DNA of 64,000 bases from Sedimentisphaerales bacterium. GTDB lineage: Bacteria > Planctomycetota > Phycisphaerae > Sedimentisphaerales > Anaerobacaceae. The notes below the pieces were generated by a model that made no database searches, was not told where the DNA came from, and saw only the letters and a program-made list of their open reading frames with translations. The DNA lies in NCBI GenBank assembly GCA_963708075.1, contig OY970194.1, positions 5,984,001 through 6,048,000 on the forward strand, written 5' to 3'. A program made the position numbers and the translations under genes. Positions within the stretch are counted from its first letter, which is position 1, and each line of letters starts with the position of its first letter. Of this stretch, positions 18,547 to 33,516 are shown piece after piece.

Positions 18547-19611
18547 ATGAAAGTGATCGTACATGTAGATGGTGGCAGCCGGGGCAATCCGGGCCCGGCG
18601 GCCGCGGCGTTTGTTCTCGATGACGCGGCCGGCAACCGATTGGCGGCCAGGGCATGCGTGCTGGGCAAGACTACGAACAATGTTGCCGAGTACACGGCCC
18701 TGCTCCGTGCTTTAGAGGCGGCCGGTGCGCTCGGTGCAACGGATGTGGCCGTCTTCAGTGACAGCGAGCTGCTCGTCAGGCAGCTTACCGGCCTGTACAA
18801 GGTCAAGAGCGACTTGATCCGGCCGCTGTACGAGCAGGTGAACGACTTGCGCAATCAGTTCGACTGCTTCAGCATCCGGCACGTCATGCGCGAGCAGAAC
18901 AAGGAGGCGGATCGGCTCGTGAACGAGGCGCTGGATGCCGGTCGGGACATCGAGGAGGGGGCGGCAAAGCCGCAGAAGAAGATCCGGCTGGGCGTGCTCA
19001 TCAGCGGCGGGGGCAGGACGATGATGAATATTCTCGACTGCATCAAATGCCGCGAGCTCAACGCGGAGATCGCCGTCGTGATCAGTTCGCTCTCGACTAT
19101 CGCGGGCATCAACAAAGCGCGCAACGCGGGGCTGCCCGTGAAAATCATCCGGCGGAAGGACTATCCCGACATCGATGCATTCAGCGAGCAGATCACGGAA
19201 GAGCTGGATGCGGCCAAGGTGGACCTGGTGGTGCAGGGGGGGTGGCTGTGCCTGTGGAAGATCCCGCCGCAGTATGAGAACCGCGTGATGAACATCCACC
19301 CGGCATTGCTGCCCGGTTTCGGGGGCAAGGGCATGTGGGGTCATCACGTGCACGAGGCGGTGCTCGCCGCCGGCTGCAAGGTCAGCGGCTGCACGGTCCA
19401 CTTCTGCACGAACGAATACGACAGGGGGCCGATCATTGTGCAGCGGACCTGCCCGGTGGCCGACGACGACACGCCCGACACGCTGGCGGAGCGGGTCTTC
19501 GAGCAGGAGTGCATCGCCTATCCGCAGGCAATCCGCTGGTTTGCTGAAGACAGACTCCAGGTGGAAGGCAACCGGGTGAAGGTGCAGTCATTGATGAAGG
19601 ATGATGGATGA
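18547..19611 (+). CDS. purN: RNase HI - phosphoribosylglycinamide formyltransferase fusion
   Basis: N-term DGGSRGNPG, TNNVAEY, SDSELLV, N.EADRL; C-term GVLISGGG, NIHPALLP, GCTVH, D.GPII. Confidence 0.85.
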   Translation: MKVIVHVDGGSRGNPGPAAAAFVLDDAAGNRLAARACVLGKTTNNVAEYTALLRALEAAGALGATDVAVFSDSELLVRQLTGLYKVKSDLIRPLYEQVNDLRNQFDCFSIRHVMREQNKEADRLVNEALDAGRDIEEGAAKPQKKIRLGVLISGGGRTMMNILDCIKCRELNAEIAVVISSLSTIAGINKARNAGLPVKIIRRKDYPDIDAFSEQITEELDAAKVDLVVQGGWLCLWKIPPQYENRVMNIHPALLPGFGGKGMWGHHVHEAVLAAGCKVSGCTVHFCTNEYDRGPIIVQRTCPVADDDTPDTLAERVFEQECIAYPQAIRWFAEDRLQVEGNRVKVQSLMKDDG

Positions 19612-23300: not shown

Positions 23301-23588
23301 CTATATCCCGGGCTCTTTGTTCTCGCCGCCGCTGCCGTTGTCTTCGAGCAGCTTTCTGAGGTACGTGTTCTCCCGGCGCGTCGCCTCCAGGTCGAACGCC
23401 TGGTACTTGATGCAGACCCGCAGGTAATCCAACAGCTCCTGCAGGGTGCTTATGCTCTTTTGGAGCTGTTTGCGACTGGCGTCGGCCTGTTTGGCCAGAT
23501 CGGCCAGCTTCTGGTGGCTCGGATCGGTGGTTTCGCCGAAATGCCTGAGCAAGTCATTCAGTGCGCCTTCCAGACTGGCCTCGTCCAT
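23301..23588 (-). CDS. small conserved-looking coiled-coil protein
   Basis: RBS GGAGAG; LDYLRVCIKY..FDLEATRREN.YLR.LLE motif. Confidence 0.7.
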   Translation of the reverse strand: MDEASLEGALNDLLRHFGETTDPSHQKLADLAKQADASRKQLQKSISTLQELLDYLRVCIKYQAFDLEATRRENTYLRKLLEDNGSGGENKEPGI

Positions 23589-23814
23589 CGCACTCTCCTC
23601 CGGAAAACTTCTAAAAAACCAGTGGATAAACCCCCAAACTACATAGTGCCTATTGTACCAGACGCCGGACTGTTGGAGAAGGCCATTCTATGCTCTTTTC
23701 CCATCTTAACGCATATAATGGCCCGAAAGGAGCGTTGAGAGGGACGGCTGTGTCGAGAGTAGGGCTTGTAACCAATCTGCCGGAACACACCGCCCTAACG
23801 ACCATAACGTCCGC

Positions 23815-24140
23815 CAATTGGCTTTGTTCCGCACGGGCCGGCAAGCCACCTGGGCCGAGTTGATCACTTCAAACATCAAACTTCACACCTCGAACTCCCC
23901 CCAATTGGCTTTGTTTCGCACAATGATCGACTGCCTGCCGCCTGTCGCCTGGCAATTGGCTTTGTTTGGCGCAACGGGTTCTTCCCGTAGGGGCGGGTTT
24001 CAAACCCGCCCGCAAACTTGGCACGTTTTGTGGCGAGGCCGTCCTGGCCTTGTCTGCTACAATTGGCTTTGTTTCACGGAATCCTGATGCCCGCTGCCTG
24101 CTCCCTGATGCCTCCTCTTACAGATTGGCTTTGTTTCTGC
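23815..24140. repeat. array of five ATTGGCTTTGTT direct repeats with irregular spacers
   Basis: Core starts at 23817, 23904, 23955, 24062, 24124 (periods 87, 51, 107, 62). Confidence 0.85.
23987..24011 (+). repeat. GTAG-type REP
   Basis: GTAG-G-GGCGGGTTT-C-AAACCCGCC-C hairpin. Confidence 0.75.
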
Positions 24141-24425: not shown

Positions 24426-24651
24426 TACAAGTCTTTTAGTCCCCACAACTTACACCGGACCGTCGAATGTCCTCTCACTTGAGAACTGATAACCGGCAAC
24501 CGACAACTGACTACCGACAACCATTTCCGATTTGCCCTGTTGCCTCCGTCGCGACATAATAGAGCCTGCTGGACCGAGCGTGACGGCTTTGGAGGCCGAG
24601 AGACCATTTGGACAATGCATCCGCCGGGACCGTTGAGAAGGGAGAAGGCAC

Positions 24652-27600
24652 ATGGCCAAAGGCAGGCAATCCAAAGGTAAACCTGACCGACGAAGCGAAA
24701 AAGCGACCGGCGAACTGCCGGCAGGCGTCAAGTTGCTCCGGACACTGGAAGGGCACAAGGACACCGTCCTTAGCGCATCGTTCAGCCCGGATGGGCGGTG
24801 GCTGGCCAGCGCAAGCGACGATGCTACGCTGCGTCTGTGGGAGGTCTCCAGTGGCAGGGAACTGCGACAATTCAGTGGGCACAAGGACAGTGTCAATAGC
24901 GTGTCATTCAGCCCGGACGGACGGTGGCTGGTCAGCGCAAGCGACGACACGACATTGCGTCTGTGGGAGGCCTCCAGCGGCAAGGAACTCCGACAGTTCA
25001 GCGGATACGAGAATAGCGTGTTGAGCGCATCGTTCAGCCCGGATGGGCGGTGGCTGGCCGGCGCCAGCTACGACGGGATGGTGTGTCTGTGGGAGACTTC
25101 CAGCGGCAAGCGACTGCGACAGTTCGGCGGGCAGAAAGACATTGTCTGGAGCGTGTCGTTCAGCCCGGACGGGCGATGGCTGGCCGGCGCCAGCTACGAC
25201 GGGATGGTGTGTCTGTGGGAGGCCTCCAGCGGCAAGGAACTGCGACAGTTCAGCGCGCACCAGGGCTCCGTCTTTGGCGTGTCGTTCAGCCCGGACGGGC
25301 GGTGGCTAGCCGGCGCGAGCGCGGACAAGACGGTGCGTCTGTGGGAGGCCTCCAGCGGCAAGCTGCTCCGCACCCTCGAAGGACACACAGGACCTGTTTC
25401 AGCGGTTGCTTTCTCCAAGGACTTCGGGATGCTCGCTTCCAAGAGCTCTGACGGGACCGTACGGCTTTGGAATTGCGAGTCGTGGGAATGCGTCGCGGTC
25501 ATTCCGACACCGGATCAGCGGTGGGGCTTTTTTGCGGCTTTGTGCTTTCACCCAACCTTGCTGTGGCTTGCCACGGACGCCTCGAAGCCGGGGGCCATTG
25601 GAGAAAGCGGCCGTCTCATTCGGTTCTGGGAGTTGGATGTCGAGGTTCTGCTCGGGAAAGGGCCCGGGGCCAGACCGCCATCGGAGGCGGTCCATCACAC
25701 CACCAGCAAGATCGTCCTGGTGGGTGATCACAGTGTGGGCAAGTCCGCACTTGGCTATCGGATGCTTCATGGCGAGTTCAAGGAGCAAGCTTCGACACAC
25801 GGGCAGCAGTTCTGGGTGTTTCCTGCCTTAGGCAAGCGACGCGCTGACGGCACCGAATGTGAAGCGGTTCTCTGGGACTTCGCTGGCCAACCCGATTACA
25901 GACTGGTTCACGCGCTGTGCATTGATGATGCCGACTTGGCCTTGGTATTGTTCGATGCCTCGGACATTCGCGACCCGCTACATGGAGTGAGCTTCTGGCT
26001 GAAGCAGCTTCAAGGGGGGCGCACCCGGTGTCCTGTTATCCTCGTAGGCGCGCAAACGGATCGCGGGAGTTGCGCGCTGATGCCGGAGGAACTGCACTCC
26101 TTTTGTCAGCAGCACGGTATCGCAGGGCCGACCCACACGAGCTCGCTCACGGGTGCCGGCGTGCCAGAACTCGTTGAACAGATGAAAGCCCTGATCCCGT
26201 GGGACGACAAGCCCGCCACCGTCACAACTACGACTTTCAAGCGCATCAAGGACTACGTGCTCGGCCTCAAGGAGTCGAAATCGCACGACCAGACCATCTT
26301 CACACCCGTGGAACTCCGTGCCCGTTTGGAGGCCACCGATGTCGGCTGGCATTTCACCGACAATGAAATGCTGACTGCCGTAGGGCACCTTGAGAACTAC
26401 GGCTATGTCAGACGCTTGCGGACCTCGAAGGGGGAGCTGCGTATCCTGCTCCAGCCGGAACGGCTCAACAATCTGGCATCATCGTTCGTTCTAGAAGCAC
26501 GCCGGAACACACTGGGTGCGTTGGAGGAGAGACGTTTGCTGGCTGGCGGCTACGCCTTTCCGGAGTTGACGGACTTGAGCGAGGCCGAGCGTGACTTGCT
26601 TCTGGATTCGGCGGCCTTGCTTTTCCTGGAGCACAATGTTGCATTTCGCGAGACGGACCCCCTACGCATGGAGCCGTACTTGGTCTTCCCGGAACTGATC
26701 AACTTGAAGAAGCCGTCTGGGGACGAAAGGGCAACCGAAGAGGGGGTGGCCTACACGGTGCGTGGGCCGACGGAGAACGTGTTTGCCTCGCTGGTCGTCC
26801 TGCTGGGCCACACGCATACTCTCACGCGCACGGGCCAATGGCAGAACAATGCGCGTTACGAGGTGGGCGAAGGCTTAGTCTGCGGGTTCCGCCAAGAGGC
26901 CGAGCGCGACGGTGAATTAGACTTCGTGGTCTGCTTCGGTCCCAAGGTGGGTGGACCGATCCGGACTCTATTCCAAGGGCTATTCGAGAGCTTCCTCGCC
27001 CGGCGCAACCTGACGGTGATCCGTTACGAACCGGTGCGTTGTACTGAGGCGGAGTGTGGACACTTGCTGGACCGATCCGTCGTGCGCCAGCGGATGAAGG
27101 AGGGTAAGACCTTTGCCTTCTGCAACGATTGCGGCGAGAAATTGACATTGCCAGAGATGGCGGAGCCAATTCAGTTGACGCGCGAAATCGAAGCCGAGGT
27201 TGAGACTCAGCGTCGCACTGCCGAGCAGCGGACACGATTCGAACAGGCCATCTTCAGTGTGCAAAACTATGTGGTAGAGCAGGGAATCAAGGTGCCCGAG
27301 TGCTTCATCAGCTATGCCTGGGGCGTGCCGGAGCACGAACGGTGGGTGGAAAAGCGGCTGGCGACCGATCTACAAAAAGCGGGGATTGCGGTCGTGCTGG
27401 ATCGATGGCACAACGCGAAGATTGGCGCAAGCGTAGCGAGGTTTATCGAACGCATCGAAAAATGTGACCGGATTGTCACGGTTGGCACGCCGCTCTATCG
27501 TCACAAGTACGAGAACAAGGACACAAGCACCGGCTATGTCGCGGCGGCGGAGGTGGATTTGATCAACAACCGGCTTCTTGGCACCGAGCTACAGAAGGCA

Positions 27601-27804
27601 AGCGTGCTCCCGCTGTTGCTGGACGGAGAGAAGACCGCTTCCCTACCGCCGCTCCTGCATGGTCGCGTCTATGCTGACTTCCGCAACGAGGACGACTACT
27701 TCATCACGGCATTCGACTTGATCCTGTGTCTCTACGGGATTGCGCCGAGCGATCCGGCCGTGGCGGACTTGCGGGAGTCGCTCCAAGAGCTGCGGCTGAG
27801 GTAG
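24652..27804 (+). CDS. WD40-Roc-COR-zinc ribbon-TIR/SEFIR (Roco family) protein
   Basis: Six clear WD40 repeats, GDHSVGKS P-loop, WDFAGQ switch II, COR-like region, C....C and CxxC pair, C-terminal CFISYAW...WV..LA.DL...G..V.LD.W. Confidence 0.85.
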   Translation: MAKGRQSKGKPDRRSEKATGELPAGVKLLRTLEGHKDTVLSASFSPDGRWLASASDDATLRLWEVSSGRELRQFSGHKDSVNSVSFSPDGRWLVSASDDTTLRLWEASSGKELRQFSGYENSVLSASFSPDGRWLAGASYDGMVCLWETSSGKRLRQFGGQKDIVWSVSFSPDGRWLAGASYDGMVCLWEASSGKELRQFSAHQGSVFGVSFSPDGRWLAGASADKTVRLWEASSGKLLRTLEGHTGPVSAVAFSKDFGMLASKSSDGTVRLWNCESWECVAVIPTPDQRWGFFAALCFHPTLLWLATDASKPGAIGESGRLIRFWELDVEVLLGKGPGARPPSEAVHHTTSKIVLVGDHSVGKSALGYRMLHGEFKEQASTHGQQFWVFPALGKRRADGTECEAVLWDFAGQPDYRLVHALCIDDADLALVLFDASDIRDPLHGVSFWLKQLQGGRTRCPVILVGAQTDRGSCALMPEELHSFCQQHGIAGPTHTSSLTGAGVPELVEQMKALIPWDDKPATVTTTTFKRIKDYVLGLKESKSHDQTIFTPVELRARLEATDVGWHFTDNEMLTAVGHLENYGYVRRLRTSKGELRILLQPERLNNLASSFVLEARRNTLGALEERRLLAGGYAFPELTDLSEAERDLLLDSAALLFLEHNVAFRETDPLRMEPYLVFPELINLKKPSGDERATEEGVAYTVRGPTENVFASLVVLLGHTHTLTRTGQWQNNARYEVGEGLVCGFRQEAERDGELDFVVCFGPKVGGPIRTLFQGLFESFLARRNLTVIRYEPVRCTEAECGHLLDRSVVRQRMKEGKTFAFCNDCGEKLTLPEMAEPIQLTREIEAEVETQRRTAEQRTRFEQAIFSVQNYVVEQGIKVPECFISYAWGVPEHERWVEKRLATDLQKAGIAVVLDRWHNAKIGASVARFIERIEKCDRIVTVGTPLYRHKYENKDTSTGYVAAAEVDLINNRLLGTELQKASVLPLLLDGEKTASLPPLLHGRVYADFRNEDDYFITAFDLILCLYGIAPSDPAVADLRESLQELRLR
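24748..25480 (+). repeat. 126-nt tandem coding repeats (WD40 blades)
   Basis: TTCAGCCCGGA recurs at 24781, 24907, 25033, 25159, 25285; a diverged unit follows at 25411. Confidence 0.9.
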
Positions 27805-27815
27805 GGGCATCGAGG

Positions 27816-27843
27816 GAAACGCCTTGCGGCGTCACTACAAACG
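27816..27843 (-). repeat. GTAG-type REP between convergent genes
   Basis: Minus strand GTTTGTAGTGACGCC-GCAA-GGCGTTTC. Confidence 0.6.
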
Positions 27844-27859
27844 GCTGCCTTTTGTCGAT

Positions 27860-28444
27860 CTATGCCAAACCTTCCGGGGTGGACTGGCCGTGGAACTCGC
27901 TGGGGTTGAGGAAGATTTCGCCGCGGACCTCCTCGACGATGAGCTGGGCGATGTGCATGGCGGGACGCAGGAGGATGGTCTGCGGTCCGAGGTTGATCAT
28001 TTCGAGCGTGAGCGGGCCGGCCCAGCCGGGATGGACGGTCGGCGAGGTGAAGTGGACCATCAGGCCGCAGCGGGCCCGGCTGCTCTTGCCCTCGATCCGC
28101 GCGGCCAGGTGCGGCGTCCCCTTGTTCACCGGCAGCTCGATGCGCTCCAGCGTGCGGCCGAGGATGAACTGCTGCGGCTTGAGCGGGTACGGGTTCTCGT
28201 CCGTGAGCGAGATTCTTCGCGAGTTCCGCGCGATCACCTCCGACAGCGTCCCGCGCTCCGTGACATCATAATGGTATGGCCCCGCCTGCGGCACCGCGAT
28301 CTCTCCATGCAGTCGCAAGTCCACCGCGTGCGTGTCATACGGACAGTACTTCCCCTTCTCCGGCCGCCTCGGCGCCGGCTCCGGCTCAATCACCAGCCGC
28401 CCTTCATCCAATGCCTTTTGAATCTCGATATTCGATAGAATCAC
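27860..28444 (-). CDS. dcd: dCTP deaminase (trimeric dUTPase-fold)
   Basis: MILSN.EI, VDLRL, EGKSSRAR.GL.VH.T.P.VHPG..G.LTLEM.NLG, IAQL. Confidence 0.88.
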   Translation of the reverse strand: MILSNIEIQKALDEGRLVIEPEPAPRRPEKGKYCPYDTHAVDLRLHGEIAVPQAGPYHYDVTERGTLSEVIARNSRRISLTDENPYPLKPQQFILGRTLERIELPVNKGTPHLAARIEGKSSRARCGLMVHFTSPTVHPGWAGPLTLEMINLGPQTILLRPAMHIAQLIVEEVRGEIFLNPSEFHGQSTPEGLA

Positions 28445-28665
28445 GTTTCAGCTCACAATCTCACCGCGTGTCAATGCCGCCGGATTCACCGGCCCAATGG
28501 GTCCATAAGATACCGCTTCTCGAGTCACAACGCCAGAGCCACGCGATGCAGGATTTGTCTTGATGCTTCGCACGAAAAGCGTAAAATGAGAGTCAGCAAG
28601 CAAGCCTGATTGACATACGAGTGACGGCGGGAAAAGCGGGAATGACCACTGGCGGAGCGCGTACC

Positions 28666-30849
28666 ATGAGAGCGGGAAGACTGCTGATATTCATCATTTG
28701 GGTCGAGCTGCTGATGTGCGTCGGTTCAGTCCTCGCCGACGGCTTCATGTTCAGGCGACGTGCGGCGAGCCAAGCCGATATCCTCCAGCCGACGCAGAAA
28801 GTCTACATTCGCTGGGATGGCTCCGAGGAGAAGCTGCTGATTCAGACAAAGTATGAAGGTCCAGCCGAAGAAATGGTCTGGATCGTGCCGGTTCCCTCGC
28901 GGCCGGCCGTGGTGGAGGGCGATCCGAACGTCTTCCGACGGCTCAGTATAGAGACGTATTCTGGGGAGATCTTCTACACTGATTTTGCAGGTCTGCGGCT
29001 CTACAGCAGTGCCGGCGGCGCCCCGAGGAGAGAGGATCCTGTGGAGTGGCGTCAACAGATTGGCGCCTATGACGTCGTGCTGTTAAGACCGGCCGGAGAA
29101 GAGACGGTGATCGAGTGGCTCAATGCCAACGACTTCGGCATGCCGGACAGAGCCGTTCCCATCCTCCAGGACTACATCCGTGAGCAATGGTGGATGGTGG
29201 CCGCAAAGATTCATCCCGATGCTTTGACGGACATCACACGCGATGCACTCGCCAAGGGTCTGTTACATCCTCTGGAGATGACGTTCCAGTCCCCTGCGTG
29301 TCTCTATCCGCTCCGCTTGACGAGTATGGCGGCCGGGCCGGTGGAGGAACTGATCTACATCGAAAGTACGGAACACTGCGAGCCGGCGACATACGCAGAT
29401 GGCAAATGGACGATCGATGTTTTTGGCGGCCCCGTCCGGCAGATACCCGACAGTGATGGTCTGTCCGACATGGAGCGAACCGCCGCGATCATCGAGGGCC
29501 GGACGGAGACTATCTTCACGAGGTGTCTCACAAAGCTCAGAAGGGTCTTCCAGCCCGAGGAGATGACAGAGGACATCGTGTTCAGAAAGATGAACTATGC
29601 GGCGCTGCTTGCCAGCGAAGCTCCCTCGCAGATCGGTCAGGGGGCAACCCAGTACGGCCGCCGTCGTGACCCGAACGGCATATCGCCTCTGTTGGGCGTG
29701 CTCACACCGGCAGCTCTGGATCTGGTGAAGCCCGGGCCGAAGGAATTGCAGCCGTTCCCGAACCCTTCAGCCAATTTCCTTTTCTTTGGGGAGTTGGACA
29801 ACCAGAAACGCAAGTGTGCCCACCTGCGAAGTTGCATCTGGGCCCTGGGGGAAATCGGTATCGATCACAACACTGCCCCGGGCGTGGAGGCGACGCTCCT
29901 GCGGTGTGCAGAGCATGAGAATCAGCTCATCCGAATGGAGGCATATATTGCCTTGATCAAGTCGGGTCTTCCAGGCGTGGGAGTGGTGCTGCTTGACCGA
30001 TTTGAGCGAATCGTCAGCGGTGACCTGACGTACCTTGTGTCTTCCCTCTGGCTGGATGCACCGATTGGTCTGGCCGAGGTGGACATTGTGGCGGATTGGG
30101 TGAATCGGGATGGAAGCGCCGCCGACAAGGAAGCATTTCGCACAATTCTCTCACAGACGATTGCCCGCCTACCCGCTGATCCCATGACTGCCGTGGGACG
30201 CGATGAGTGGGGCAACGCGATTCTTCTGGAGTGGCCCGGATGGATGGTGCATCAGGCCATCATGGCGCCGGAGGCACGCATGGTCGGCGCACTACGGAGT
30301 CTCCGCGAGAAGTTCTCCGAGGCCAATTCAGTGGCTCTCTTCCTGCTGAAGGCAGAGGTGTTGTGCGGATCCGCCGAGGCCGTCTCGGCGGCCGCTCGCT
30401 GGATAGCTGACGCCCAAAACCGAGTCCTGCCGGAACTGGAGGGGCCCGTCAAAGGCGGCTATGCACGCCTCACATATACAGGTGAACAGGGCAAGAGCCT
30501 CCGTGACCGGGTGCTTAAGGTCGGCACGAATGATTACCGCTATTCCGGAGTACCCTCTACGGTCAGCGGCACGATCCTCCGAACGGCTCTTTCGAATTAC
30601 CAGCTTGATGATTGGTACGCCCTGTACCTGTTGGCGCAGATCGAGTCCCCCCAGGCCTCCGACAGACAGATGATCCGGACCCTCTGGGACACCAAGGACG
30701 AAGGCAAGCGATTGGTCGCCGTCGATATCCTGTGGCTATGGAAAGATGCCGAGATGATGATCGAGTTTTACGACGGATGCAATCAAAGCAGGGTCAGGTT
30801 CGAAATCGACCGTCTCGTAGCCGATCTCGAAGGGAAACCTCACAGGTAG
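28666..30849 (+). CDS. secreted DUF2330-domain protein with C-terminal helical (HEAT-like) region
   Basis: Signal peptide; WIVPVPS.P, GAYDV.LL, WL.ANDF, LHPL...F, YPLRLTS motifs. Confidence 0.7.
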   Translation: MRAGRLLIFIIWVELLMCVGSVLADGFMFRRRAASQADILQPTQKVYIRWDGSEEKLLIQTKYEGPAEEMVWIVPVPSRPAVVEGDPNVFRRLSIETYSGEIFYTDFAGLRLYSSAGGAPRREDPVEWRQQIGAYDVVLLRPAGEETVIEWLNANDFGMPDRAVPILQDYIREQWWMVAAKIHPDALTDITRDALAKGLLHPLEMTFQSPACLYPLRLTSMAAGPVEELIYIESTEHCEPATYADGKWTIDVFGGPVRQIPDSDGLSDMERTAAIIEGRTETIFTRCLTKLRRVFQPEEMTEDIVFRKMNYAALLASEAPSQIGQGATQYGRRRDPNGISPLLGVLTPAALDLVKPGPKELQPFPNPSANFLFFGELDNQKRKCAHLRSCIWALGEIGIDHNTAPGVEATLLRCAEHENQLIRMEAYIALIKSGLPGVGVVLLDRFERIVSGDLTYLVSSLWLDAPIGLAEVDIVADWVNRDGSAADKEAFRTILSQTIARLPADPMTAVGRDEWGNAILLEWPGWMVHQAIMAPEARMVGALRSLREKFSEANSVALFLLKAEVLCGSAEAVSAAARWIADAQNRVLPELEGPVKGGYARLTYTGEQGKSLRDRVLKVGTNDYRYSGVPSTVSGTILRTALSNYQLDDWYALYLLAQIESPQASDRQMIRTLWDTKDEGKRLVAVDILWLWKDAEMMIEFYDGCNQSRVRFEIDRLVADLEGKPHR

Positions 30850-31529
30850 GGGCGGATATGCGCAACGCGGCGCAAGCCTGCGAATGAATCGAGGAGGTAG
30901 TCGGGCCTTTCGGCCTGGATTTTGTGGAGGTGGTTGAGGGCCTGGCCGCCGGTTTGGACGACGGCGGAGAGAACGCCGGCTTTCTTCGCTTGGCGGACGT
31001 CGTGGTCGGTGTCGCCGATGTAGATGGTCCGCGCAGGGGCGACGCGGAATTCCTCGACGAGGCTGATGATGCCGAGGGCGCGGGAGTCGCCGGACTCCGT
31101 CGGGTACATCATGGAGGAACGCACGGCGTCCCAGTCCTTGAAGGCGAGCGTGGATAGGATGCTCTCGATGGCTTCGAGGCGCAAGCCGCTCAGCACGGCC
31201 AGGCGAATGCCCCGCGCCTTCAATTCGTGCAGGGCCTGTTCCACGCCGTCAAAGGGCGTGATCTGACCGACTACTTTGTAGGGGAATAGTGTCCAGAACC
31301 GCTCGTGGCAATCATCGGTCCGGCCCTTGCAGTTTTCTGGGAGGTACGCGCGGATGTACTCCCAGATGCTGGTCCCGAACACATCGTACACGGGCTCGGC
31401 GCATCCTTCCGGAATCCCCAGCTCCTTCGCCGCCCGTCGCACCGCCGCCATGATTGCTTCGTCGGTCCTGACCAGCGTCCCGCCAAGGTCCGTAACGATC
31501 AGGTCTATCTTCTTTCCGGTATGACTCAT
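30840..31529 (-). CDS. HAD-superfamily hydrolase
   Basis: Motif I variant TDLGGTL, LAVLS, YIGDT.HDV..AK.AG. Confidence 0.8.
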   Translation of the reverse strand: MSHTGKKIDLIVTDLGGTLVRTDEAIMAAVRRAAKELGIPEGCAEPVYDVFGTSIWEYIRAYLPENCKGRTDDCHERFWTLFPYKVVGQITPFDGVEQALHELKARGIRLAVLSGLRLEAIESILSTLAFKDWDAVRSSMMYPTESGDSRALGIISLVEEFRVAPARTIYIGDTDHDVRQAKKAGVLSAVVQTGGQALNHLHKIQAERPDYLLDSFAGLRRVAHIRPYL

Positions 31530-31578
31530 GTGAATGTCCTCAGAAGGCATGTTTTCGACACATGGGCTTTGATTCGCC

Positions 31579-32079
31579 TCATGCCTGTTTCTCTTCGATC
31601 TTGAGAATTGTGAAGCCGGACTTGAGGTAGTTGTTCAGGGCGTTGGGATGATCGTAGGTGCAAGTGTGGACCCAGACACGGCTTGCCGCCCAGGCGAAGG
31701 CGTTCCCGATGGCGCTGTCGAGCAGCGGGCCGCCGTGGCCCTGGCCGACGAACTCGGGAGTCAGGCCGAAGATCCGAATCTCGGCGCTGCCGCCGTCCTG
31801 GCGCTGGAGTTCGTAGTAGCCTGCGATAGAGCCTTGCCGGTACGCGACAAAGGTCCTGAGATTGTCGCCGGCCGCGTAGTCGTGCCACTGCTCAGCGGTC
31901 CAGACGAGGCGATCCGTCCATCGCCAATCGCCGCCCACGTACTCATAGAGGAAGCGGTTGAATCGCGGCTGCTTGACCACGCACTCGCGAACCTCCAGGT
32001 CGCTCGCCTTGCGGGGCCTTCGGACCCACTGCTCTTTCGATGTTATCTCCAGATGCGTAACTCGCAGCATATCTTCCAA
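31579..32079 (-). CDS. GNAT family N-acetyltransferase
   Basis: LY..VG..W.W.DR, AGYYEL, FGL.PEF.GQG.G, RVWVHTC.YDHP.AL.NY...GF. Confidence 0.88.
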   Translation of the reverse strand: MEDMLRVTHLEITSKEQWVRRPRKASDLEVRECVVKQPRFNRFLYEYVGGDWRWTDRLVWTAEQWHDYAAGDNLRTFVAYRQGSIAGYYELQRQDGGSAEIRIFGLTPEFVGQGHGGPLLDSAIGNAFAWAASRVWVHTCTYDHPNALNNYLKSGFTILKIEEKQA

Positions 32080-32193
32080 CCTCAGAGCCTCATCCGACAG
32101 CCAATTTCACGAGATGGCTTTCGGGCAGATTGTTATAATCGAGAGCATCGTGAAGTAGAAGCGGCGTTTCCTTGAAATCAGGAGGATTGAGAG

Positions 32194-33516
32194 ATGACAG
32201 CCTACGGAATTGCACTCATGTCGATCTTGGCTCTTGTGGATAATGGCCCGGCCCGCGAGCCGAAGCAGGCTGGTCCCGACCCGGAGACGAAGCTCGTCGC
32301 GGAAGGCAACAATCGGTTCGCCCTGCAACTGTATCAGAAGTTACAGGACGACAAGGGCAACCTGTTCTTCTCCCCCTACAGCATCGCCACGGCACTGGCT
32401 ATGACCTACGCGGGGGCACGAGGCGCCACGCAGGAGCAGATGGCCCAGGTGCTGAGTCTCCCGACCGCGAAGCATGTAGCCCAGCCGCCCTCGGCTGGGG
32501 AACAAAGGGTCACCCCCGGGGGCGGGGGTGCTACAGCGGCGGGGACATTGCAGTCTCGTGAGCCGATGTCCCAGGAGCAGCTCGCACAGGTCTTCGGCAA
32601 CGTGATCAAGGACCTCAACACGCGAGGCGGCGGGGACAAGTACGAGCTTCGCATCGCCAACGCGCTGTGGGGCCAGAAGGACTACAAGTTCCTGCCCGCG
32701 TTCGTAGGATTGGTCGAGAAGCAGTACGGTGGCACGCTGCGAAACGTCGATTTCGTTACCGCCGCGGAGCAGGCCCGCCAGATGATCAATGCGTGGGTGG
32801 CCAAACAAACCAACGACAAGATCAAGGACCTCATCGGCCCGGGCGTGCTGGACGCCATGACCCGCCTTGTTCTGACCAACGCCATCTACTTCAAAGGCAA
32901 CTGGGCCAGCCAGTTCGAGAAGGACCAGACGCAGGACCAGCCGTTCACGCTGCTGGAAGGGACAAACGTGCAGGCCCCGATGATGAACCAGCAGACTCGC
33001 TTCGGCTACGCCGAGACCGATATGCTGCAGGTGCTCGACATGCCCTACAGGGGCGACGAGCTCTCGATGGTGGTCCTGCTGCCGAAGAAGATGGACGGCA
33101 TCAAGGGGCTTGAGCAGGATCTCACGGCCGAGAGCCTCTCGAAATGGCTCGGCGCTATCCGCAGACGGCAGGTCATCGTCTCCGTGCCGAAGTTCAAGAT
33201 GACCAGCAAGTTCAGTCTCGCTCAGGTGCTGCAGTCGATGGGCATGGCCGATGCCTTCACCGACCAGGCCGATTTCACCGGCATGACGGCCCGCCGGGAG
33301 TTGTTCCTCTCGGCGGTGATCCACCAGGCCTACGTCGATGTGAACGAGGAAGGCACCGAGGCGGCCGCCGCCACCGGGGCTGTCGTGGGCGTGACATCCA
33401 TCGGCCCGGGCACGACGCCGGTCTTTCGTGCCGACCACCCGTTCCTCTTCCTGATCCGCGACAAGACCACCGGCAGCATCCTGTTCCTGGGCCGGGTGAT
33501 GAACCCACAGACCTGA
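32194..33516 (+). CDS. serpin (serine protease inhibitor) with REP-derived insertion
   Basis: NLFFSPYSI..AL, LVLTNAIYFKG.W, hinge EEGTEAAAAT, FRADHPFLF.I, LFLGRV.NP. Confidence 0.95.
   Translation: MTAYGIALMSILALVDNGPAREPKQAGPDPETKLVAEGNNRFALQLYQKLQDDKGNLFFSPYSIATALAMTYAGARGATQEQMAQVLSLPTAKHVAQPPSAGEQRVTPGGGGATAAGTLQSREPMSQEQLAQVFGNVIKDLNTRGGGDKYELRIANALWGQKDYKFLPAFVGLVEKQYGGTLRNVDFVTAAEQARQMINAWVAKQTNDKIKDLIGPGVLDAMTRLVLTNAIYFKGNWASQFEKDQTQDQPFTLLEGTNVQAPMMNQQTRFGYAETDMLQVLDMPYRGDELSMVVLLPKKMDGIKGLEQDLTAESLSKWLGAIRRRQVIVSVPKFKMTSKFSLAQVLQSMGMADAFTDQADFTGMTARRELFLSAVIHQAYVDVNEEGTEAAAATGAVVGVTSIGPGTTPVFRADHPFLFLIRDKTTGSILFLGRVMNPQT
32475..32535. repeat. GTAG-type REP doublet inside the serpin gene
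   Basis: TGTAGCCCAGCCGCCCTCGGCTGGGG-AACAAAGGGT-CACCCCCGGGGGCGGGGGTGCTACA. Confidence 0.8.

Follow-up and report, generated by a model that had tools for sequence, protein, structure and literature searches.

Bacterial proteins that join leucine-rich repeats (LRRs) to an AP-GTPase and a COR domain were predicted by Kaur et al. in 2021 (eLife, PMC8195603) to be counter-invader systems, with at least 24 effector types including TIR. The Figure 6 source data of the same paper hold 41 mentions (about 21 entries) of a propeller combined with an AP-GTPase, without a COR label, and four entries read BetaPropeller+AP-GTPase+TIR or BetaPropeller+AP-GTPase+PrimaseZnR+TIR (PMC8195603). According to a 2019 review, all identified prokaryotic Roco proteins have LRRs (PMC6337361). 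Protection against phage phi29 by a Bacillus SEFIR protein depends on an Asp whose predicted role is to join SEFIR domains (10.1101/2022.05.11.491447), and later work attributes NAD+ depletion to this protein (10.1101/2024.02.11.579819). In the fungal protein HET-E, four positively selected codons (7, 9, 25 and 27) lie on the top face of a propeller (PMC1805685). Here we analyse a gene in a 64,000-nucleotide stretch of the genome of a Sedimentisphaerales bacterium (Planctomycetota; assembly GCA_963708075.1, contig OY970194.1, positions 5,984,001 to 6,048,000; hereafter the window), which encodes a WD40 propeller, a Roc GTPase, a predicted COR region, a zinc ribbon and a SEFIR-type TIR domain in one polypeptide (the receptor protein). 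We read it as a ligand-sensing receptor whose SEFIR NADase output is gated through Roc-COR, a reading that, taken whole, stands in our judgement at an even chance.

The layout WD40-Roc-COR-zinc ribbon-TIR had been proposed in a first-pass annotation of the window, and every domain of it was recovered by Pfam, fold comparison or conserved cysteines (Table 1). The gene is present in one copy in the 7.5-Mb genome and its ATG is preceded by a Shine-Dalgarno-like purine run. ClpC of this genome groups with Sedimentisphaerales proteins, so that a planctomycete of this order is the most likely host. The Roc domain matches Pfam PF08477 over residues 353-470 (E 8.4e-18; 65 bits against a curated cut-off of 27), and the motifs reported from the letters (GDHSVGKS, STHG at residues 381-384, WDFAGQ at 408-413 and the atypical G4 motif GAQTD) were all found where they had been placed, giving the G1-G3 set of a Roco GTPase. 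Six Roc residues (K364, H383, D409, G412, Q413 and D470) do not vary among the 120 close homologues and hardly vary among distant members. The NTPase is this Ras-like Roc domain and not a STAND ATPase of the NACHT or NB-ARC type.

Sequence profiles did not identify the COR region: Pfam COR-A and COR-B matched none of 28 aligned members and did not match the receptor protein, a profile run against PDB sequences returned zinc-finger matches only, and an hhalign comparison with the COR of one LRR-Roco gave a probability of 0.6%. In another PDB search, made with profile A2, WD40 matches crowded out all others. Neighbouring LRR-Rocos at two homologue loci (L025 and L039) do match Pfam COR. A model of residues 344-1050 was built from 114 sequences (predicted local distance difference test, pLDDT, 93; predicted template modelling score 0.76). 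With this model, the top Foldseek match is the Chlorobium tepidum RocCOR structure 3DPU (E 3.1e-17, 508 columns, root-mean-square deviation (rmsd) 9.3), followed by LRRK1, 6HLU and LRRK2, all of which rank above plain Rab GTPases. In VIA-align comparisons, the Methanosarcina barkeri RocCOR structure 4WNR aligned with Z 22.0 and rmsd 3.9 over 306 residues, and Rab domains tied with it but covered only about 170; LRRK1 aligned over 446 residues (rmsd 7.8), and LRRK1 and LRRK2 over 424-446 residues (rmsd about 8). As judged from the predicted model, these matches place COR directly after Roc and indicate a Roc-COR tandem whose COR part is divergent.

The propeller comprises six 42-residue repeats (Pfam PF00400, E 2.7e-73) and a divergent seventh blade, and five of the six repeats are 72-83% identical at the DNA level. 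A first full-length model, built from 31 close sequences (pLDDT 68) and usable for the propeller only, matches seven-bladed propellers with target template modelling scores of 0.88-0.97. Variability is concentrated at four positions of the repeat: calculated over 434 repeats of the 120 closest proteins, the entropies at positions 13, 15, 31 and 33 are 3.96, 3.85, 3.71 and 3.38 bits against a ceiling of 4.3, and the next most variable positions, 11 and 12, reach about 3.0 bits. These sites flank the conserved Val14 and Asp32 of the unit, the constancy of Asp32 being built in by the repeat-extraction pattern, and in the model they map to the entry of strand a and to the b-c turn. In DNA from 53 loci the four-residue combinations were all distinct (188 of 188 non-terminal repeats, with 39 of 227 repeats left out as terminal type), compared with 145 distinct combinations for the best other four positions tried and 171 for the best shifted pattern, in which two of the variable sites recur.

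When pairs were picked on half of the scaffold synonymous sites and the other half was held out, the four variable sites differed more at second codon positions (0.68) than the held-out synonymous sites did (0.42), in 20 of 20 splits. An earlier pN/pS table was dropped because its pairs had been picked on scaffold identity and were hence biased. At four-fold sites, repeats are more alike within a gene (0.59) than same-position repeats of different genes (0.48) or gene cores (0.48), which points to homogenisation or re-amplification of repeats within genes. Pattern and counting tests agree in suggesting that top-face codons may be under diversifying selection and repeats may evolve in concert as in HET-E, with synonymous sites near saturation. 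Four other WD-repeat frames occur in the genome and none shares repeat DNA with the receptor gene. Adenine-only change of Asn codons would not yield Trp, Lys, Gln, Glu or Met, all of which occur at the variable sites, and a diversity-generating retroelement is therefore unlikely as their source, a reverse transcriptase not having been searched for. Contigs from three DNA runs cover the receptor gene in short pieces only; a single contig joint bypasses the gene, but one of its sides is 26 bases long and lies inside repeats, so that the joint was discounted as probably caused by the repeats.

The COR region is followed by four conserved cysteines and then by a 34-residue helix that leads to the effector, the spacer being 55 residues long in 115 of 159 measurable proteins; the ribbon had been proposed at about 27040-27135, and the conserved cysteines lie in that interval. 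The C-terminal piece matches Pfam TIR_2 (E 1e-15) and SEFIR (E 3.4e-7). PADLOC matched the SEFIR part only of the receptor protein, with its bSEFIR profile at residues 872-1030 (E 1.4e-27) over profile positions 37-183 of 412 only. With a 25-member profile the best solved structure is the bacterial SEFIR 5Y8F (E 1.8e-13; the next, a TIR, 0.002), so the C-terminal TIR/SEFIR fold, on which the original reading had been staked, holds. The glutamate reported as retained there, E967, aligns with the conserved Glu of 5Y8F; both it and D917 are present in 120 of 120 close homologues, and in 107 and 109, respectively, of 119 aligned distant homologues. By established TIR chemistry E967 is a candidate catalytic residue, and the motif suggests that D917 is the counterpart of the D40 mutated by Millman et al.

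Depletion of NAD+ is, by analogy with homologues, a highly probable output of this domain. It could instead make a signalling nucleotide derived from ADP-ribose, TIR-made signals being established for Thoeris, or act as an adaptor that recruits effectors from other genes: at five loci (L019, L025, L034, L039 and L053) homologues are adjoined by TIR, caspase or second SEFIR genes, and another SEFIR-like open frame lies elsewhere in the genome (G000:C1:1049174-1050364, E 2.7e-13). However, no effector gene recurs beside the family, and the effector position of relatives is taken by domains that act directly, a nuclease for example, as would be expected of a self-contained toxin, so that we consider a signalling or adaptor role rather improbable.

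The gated NADase receptor that we favour would work as follows. The top face of the propeller would bind a foreign protein, most likely from a phage, via the four diversified residues of each blade; binding would shift the nucleotide state of the Roc-COR unit, and the zinc ribbon and 34-residue helix would pass its rearrangement on to the SEFIR domain, so that this domain would self-associate and hydrolyse NAD+ using E967. The infected cell would thereby be stopped or killed by a single-gene pattern-recognition receptor. A conflict or immune role of some kind is very probable; given such a role, a phage protein is the probable trigger, and gating by a nucleotide cycle is likely. The receptor may also pass between dimer and monomer as its homologues do. 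What the ligand is, how binding is coupled to output and which of GTP and GDP marks the 'on' state we can only infer.

Several points weigh against this mechanism. With neither Asn nor Lys in G4 and a P-loop off consensus, GTP binding is assumed. A relative at locus L008 is without a Roc domain and the tandem copy at L019 has eroded G2/G3 motifs, cases which indicate that the Roc switch can be lost. TIR domains must assemble to act. The C. tepidum Roco protein (CtRoco), however, is dimeric without nucleotide or with GDP, and GTP binding makes it monomeric (PMC5714945). If the receptor behaved alike, GTP-driven monomerisation would oppose TIR oligomerisation, and a simple CtRoco cycle alone would not explain activation: either GTP would free the SEFIR domains to polymerise, or the dimer would be the active form. 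A homodimer prediction from COR to SEFIR scored 0.12 against a mark of 0.42 and counts neither way. The selection test on the propeller is a counting test near saturation and not a codon model, and GC bias depresses the ceiling of its synonymous comparison. Identity to close homologues is 50% in the propeller against 78-85% in Roc and COR, a gap that is inflated, since the 120 homologues were ranked on the core and its high identity is partly built in. Finally, most homologues sit among housekeeping genes.

The nucleotide-binding site itself differs between the subclade of the receptor protein and the wider family. Compared with Rab11, the subclade has His and Ser at the positions of Ras residues 12 and 13 and Ala-Gln in place of the G4 Asn-Lys, whereas the wider family has mostly Ser-Gly and Ala-Arg. 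At the Ras G13 position, Ser is found in 118 of 120 subclade members and Gly in 119 of 139 of the wider family; at the K117 position, Gln (Q468 here) is found in 120 of 120 and Arg in 124 of 145, and Rab11 has Lys. All 10 proteins with a G4 Gln among the 134 of 150 representatives that were parsed are without the P-loop Gly. The A146 position is Ser in the receptor protein, as in 16 of 120 close homologues. In Ras, changes at G13 have an effect like those at A146 and K117. The A146T substitution increases GDP release about 12-fold, and more GTP is loaded with K117N (PMC6813200), and since these changes alter loading or release, a fast-exchange nucleotide state is plausible in the subclade, by analogy across a long evolutionary distance.

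These substitutions at the G13, K117 and A146 positions, together with the Roc-less relative, would also suit an immune receptor whose Roc is not ligand-driven, being either a weak, fast-exchanging G-domain that reads the cellular GTP/GDP balance as an additional input or a scaffold, with ligand-driven clustering of propellers activating the SEFIR domain directly. However, the invariance of the six Roc residues named above argues for kept nucleotide chemistry, G4-G5 motifs vary among Roco proteins anyway (PMC6337361), and the co-occurring P-loop and G4 changes probably arose once in one clade and are then not independent. We regard a Roc that does not switch as unlikely, if worth keeping in view.

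Of 7999 candidates scored in the search for homologues, 1652 proteins were returned; the family forms 805 clusters at 50% identity (E up to 1e-30), and its best 119 homologues are 72-83% identical over the core. The 67 loci come from Acidobacteriota, Planctomycetota, Verrucomicrobiota, Pseudomonadota, one cyanobacterium, Chlorobium and one archaeon (Methanosarcina). Distribution within the genus is patchy, with a full-length close copy in 4 of 23 same-genus genomes and a partial copy in one more. Vertical conservation in core synteny, which had been named as a sign against a defence role, is not seen: the receptor gene is absent from all 20 relative loci around the clpC-linked 95-codon gene, 8 of which carry serpin, GNAT, HAD or dcd genes in its place, two of these 8 in genomes with a close copy elsewhere. 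A quick, unfinished version of the tree has at least five well-supported label changes each for Acidobacteriota and Planctomycetota and pairs a planctomycete tightly with the archaeal copy, which fits horizontal transfer and does not prove it.

Among representatives, 118 of 150 have Roc-COR followed by a SEFIR-type TIR. Distant same-genus relatives (about 29% identity) have the orders TIR-WD40-Roc-COR-Zn-DUF4365 (a nuclease) and WD40-Roc-COR-Zn-phosphoesterase (calcineurin-like), and in one close homologue an AAA_35 domain replaces the propeller. Toxic domains swapped on a constant core are the pattern of conflict systems, and the NLR-like logic seen in the first-pass annotation is borne out by this swapping and by the sensor-switch-effector anatomy. 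An ordinary regulatory or scaffolding protein would account for the usual housekeeping neighbours and the strongly conserved core, but not readily for patchiness within the genus, differing insertion sites, cross-phylum identity of about 80%, a hypervariable face and interchangeable toxic domains, and is very improbable.

Individual loci add variants of the architecture. A copy in a cultured Nitrosomonas strain, 78% identical (L072:6908-12649), has transposase fragments on both sides, of IS630 type downstream. At L019:12191-14356 a propeller-less Roc-COR-SEFIR gene on a long branch, the copy with eroded G2/G3 motifs, lies directly downstream of a full one and is possibly a helper, a decoy or a decaying duplicate. 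The protein at L008:574-3099 is WD40-COR-Zn-TIR with Roc missing in frame, which may be natural or an assembly artefact. A two-gene set at L053:1110-6253 encodes TIR-AAA_35 and then AAA_35-Roc-COR-Zn-SEFIR, an ATPase-like domain replacing the propeller. Canonical LRR-Roc-COR genes (L025:765-3640 and L039:12398-14725) lie at most 4 kb from the WD40 version, with TIR genes nearby. Extra domains, judged by eye only, are found in P0129, P0154, P0163, P0165, P0205, P0214 and P0270; they include N-terminal parts that resemble vWA, like those of MoxR-vWA ternary systems, and nucleosidase-, CHAT- and adaptor-like C-terminal parts.

Clustering of 524 neighbouring open reading frames (ORFs) revealed no recurring partner gene, in keeping with the stand-alone layout proposed earlier. 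A PADLOC scan of 128 neighbour ORFs at 64 loci (127 of the 215 nearest and one more) gave 15 matches; 7 were set aside as ABC ATPases, methylases and helicases by matched profile, with a partial Pfam check, and the other 8 are plausibly of defence type. They fall at 8 of 64 loci, a count made without a background control, so that the defence-island co-occurrence suggested as a check yields a modest link only. The adjacent dcd gene was rejected as a defence partner, being of the housekeeping type (TIGR02274 above cut-off, no PADLOC match). This weak link would suit a receptor that is a non-self sensor with an NAD+-depleting output and a non-phage target, acting in kin discrimination or against predators, episymbionts or mobile elements in bacteria living in aggregates or biofilms. 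The closest analogue of its propeller evolution, HET-E/HET-D, serves allorecognition (PMC1805685), and Kaur et al. link such systems to multicellular prokaryotes. Against this, the sole tested bacterial SEFIR protein is described as anti-phage (10.1101/2022.05.11.491447), domain scans reveal neither a membrane part nor an export part, in line with a ligand inside the cell, and no 'self' partner gene recurs; a non-phage target is distinctly unlikely.

Around the gene, clpC and dcd are the neighbours that had been reported, but a conserved 95-codon gene (23301-23588, - strand) separates clpC from the receptor gene. Its 95-residue helical product, encoded immediately upstream of clpC and present in 22 of 23 same-genus genomes, matches no Pfam or NCBIfam family above cut-off and is possibly a ClpC partner. 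A near-consensus sigma-70-type promoter (11/12; 24257-24229, - strand), about 640 bases upstream of this gene, reads through the repeat cluster, possibly into a long leader or a non-coding RNA. The description of the site as a repeat-rich insertion was overstated: the upstream repeat, with a 13-mer core, has 218 genome copies, often clustered at 50-110 base spacing, and since it also occurs at the matching site in L085, where the gene is absent, it does not mark an insertion. Rfam gave no match for this dispersed repeat, nor any above gathering score upstream of the receptor gene. The repeat at the gene's 3' end, which we take to be of the repetitive extragenic palindromic (REP) kind, has 37 other genome matches, and another GTAG-type REP-like repeat lies at about 23984-24012, on the opposite side of the gene.

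The receptor gene stands at the edge of an apparent dcd-to-serpin inversion: in all 8 same-genus loci that are informative, the dcd-DUF2330-HAD-GNAT-serpin block (27860-33516 here) has the opposite orientation, and this could be real or an assembly feature. GC content at third codon positions is 0.73 in the receptor gene and 0.83-0.86 in clpC, dcd, purN and serpin; it was not drawn on, because argB and DUF2330 are not above the receptor gene's value. Elsewhere in the window, purN (18547-19611, + strand) encodes an apparent PurN with an N-terminal fusion that is presumably RNase H-like, and the full-length fusion is matched in same-genus loci.

Table 1. Features of the receptor gene and its flanks, in coordinates of the window.
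Feature	Position	Strand	Basis or remark
Whole gene, WD40-Roc-COR-Zn-helix-SEFIR protein, 1050 residues	24652..27804	+	ORF
WD40 propeller, residues 23-330, seven blades	24718..25641	+	Pfam and predicted model
Roc (AP-GTPase) domain, residues 350-517	25699..26202	+	Pfam PF08477; fold match to Rab/Roc domains
P-loop GDHSVGKS, residues 358-365; K364 invariant; H360 and S361 typical of subclade	25723..25746	+	
G4 motif AQTD, residues 467-470; D470 invariant	26050..26061	+	
Predicted COR-A and COR-B, residues 518-793, assigned by fold, without Pfam COR match	26203..27030	+	
Cys4 zinc ribbon, C797/C802/C824/C827	27031..27147	+	Cysteines at 27040-27132 conserved
34-residue helix linking zinc ribbon to effector	27181..27282	+	Predicted model
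SEFIR-type TIR, residues 881-1030, with D917 and candidate catalytic E967 (27550-27552)	27292..27741	+	
Weak sigma-70-like promoter match, 9/12, about 90 bases 5' of start	24532..24560	+	Predicted
GTAG-type REP-like repeat holding the stop codon of the receptor gene	27801..27845	.	Genome-wide family, not gene-specific
Five copies of dispersed genome-wide repeat	23806..24137	.	Flanking context, outside the system

A more far-reaching proposal is that the receptor represents a third NLR-like design, GTPase-switched, with a HET-E-like diversified propeller and spread as a recent cross-phylum cassette, in which P-loop and G4 were jointly retuned to fast exchange so that firing takes two inputs, a foreign protein and a guanine nucleotide pool disturbed by infection. 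We hold this to be speculative and unlikely; if true, the job of prokaryotic Roco proteins, including those used as LRRK2 models, would be immunity, and loss of NAD+ would directly report which nucleotide state is 'on'. Bacterial Roc-COR proteins serve as structural models for LRRK2, and our literature search found no demonstrated cellular output for them. The same search, with paywalled papers and bioRxiv supplements outside its coverage, found no experimental test of a protein of the present kind, and two supplement files of Kaur et al. 2020 held no match. With a built-in assayable output, the predicted SEFIR NADase, and specificity residues that can be named, the receptor brings two questions within reach of experiment: do prokaryotic Roco proteins act as immune receptors, and which nucleotide state, GTP or GDP, activates the downstream domain?

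Bacterial STAND/NLR-like receptors such as Avs and bNACHT combine sensor, NTPase and swappable effectors in one polypeptide. Compared with these, the receptor protein has a small GTPase and a predicted COR region instead of a STAND ATPase, and places the sensor first and the effector last; it is NLR-like in working but not an NLR, and by predicted fold it is a Roco protein. With CtRoco (3DPU, 6HLU), MbRoco2 (4WNR) and LRRK1/LRRK2 it shares the Roc-COR tandem at the level of the modelled fold, and it differs in having WD40 repeats instead of N-terminal LRRs, a COR too divergent for Pfam or hhalign, and an added zinc ribbon, helix and SEFIR domain. With the bSEFIR system described by Millman et al. 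2022 (10.1101/2022.05.11.491447) it shares a SEFIR-type domain in which the Glu and the Asp of LDRW are conserved. In that system SEFIR begins a protein about 400 residues long; in the receptor protein the domain is C-terminal behind a GTPase, without a full-length family match, and the receptor protein is not the bSEFIR system. The fungal HNWD NLRs HET-D and HET-E, as described by Paoletti et al. 2007 (PMC1805685), likewise have 42-codon WD repeats, with a homogenisation within the gene that the present repeats appear to share, and HET-E has four diversified top-face positions in two pairs, with equal spacing and in equivalent loops. They differ in their NACHT ATPase, effector-first order, far higher repeat identity and exchange between loci, unlike the present genome, where no other locus shares the repeat DNA.

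The nearest relatives on record are the AP-GTPase proteins of Kaur et al. 2021, which have in common a repeat sensor, an AP-GTPase, COR and a variable C-terminal effector that may be TIR. The main text of that paper treats LRR sensors only, and the receptor is matched to its propeller entries by architecture and length alone; a rapidly evolving N-terminal repeat sensor is thus found here in the propeller form of the source data and not in the LRR form of the definition. The variable effector is found as well, as SEFIR/TIR, DUF4365 or phosphoesterase in same-genus relatives. The novelty implied by the first-pass annotation does not survive this comparison, since the source data already contain propeller+AP-GTPase+TIR proteins and an immune role for bacterial Roc-COR proteins was already predicted (PMC8195603), as prediction without experiment in the portions of the paper available. 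The architecture was catalogued in 2021, which limits surprise, and the receptor is a member of a predicted kind. To it the present analysis adds a COR assignment at the level of the predicted fold and two features not found in the available portions of Kaur et al. 2021, a HET-E-like pattern of hypervariable WD sites and a subclade with altered G1 and G4 motifs.

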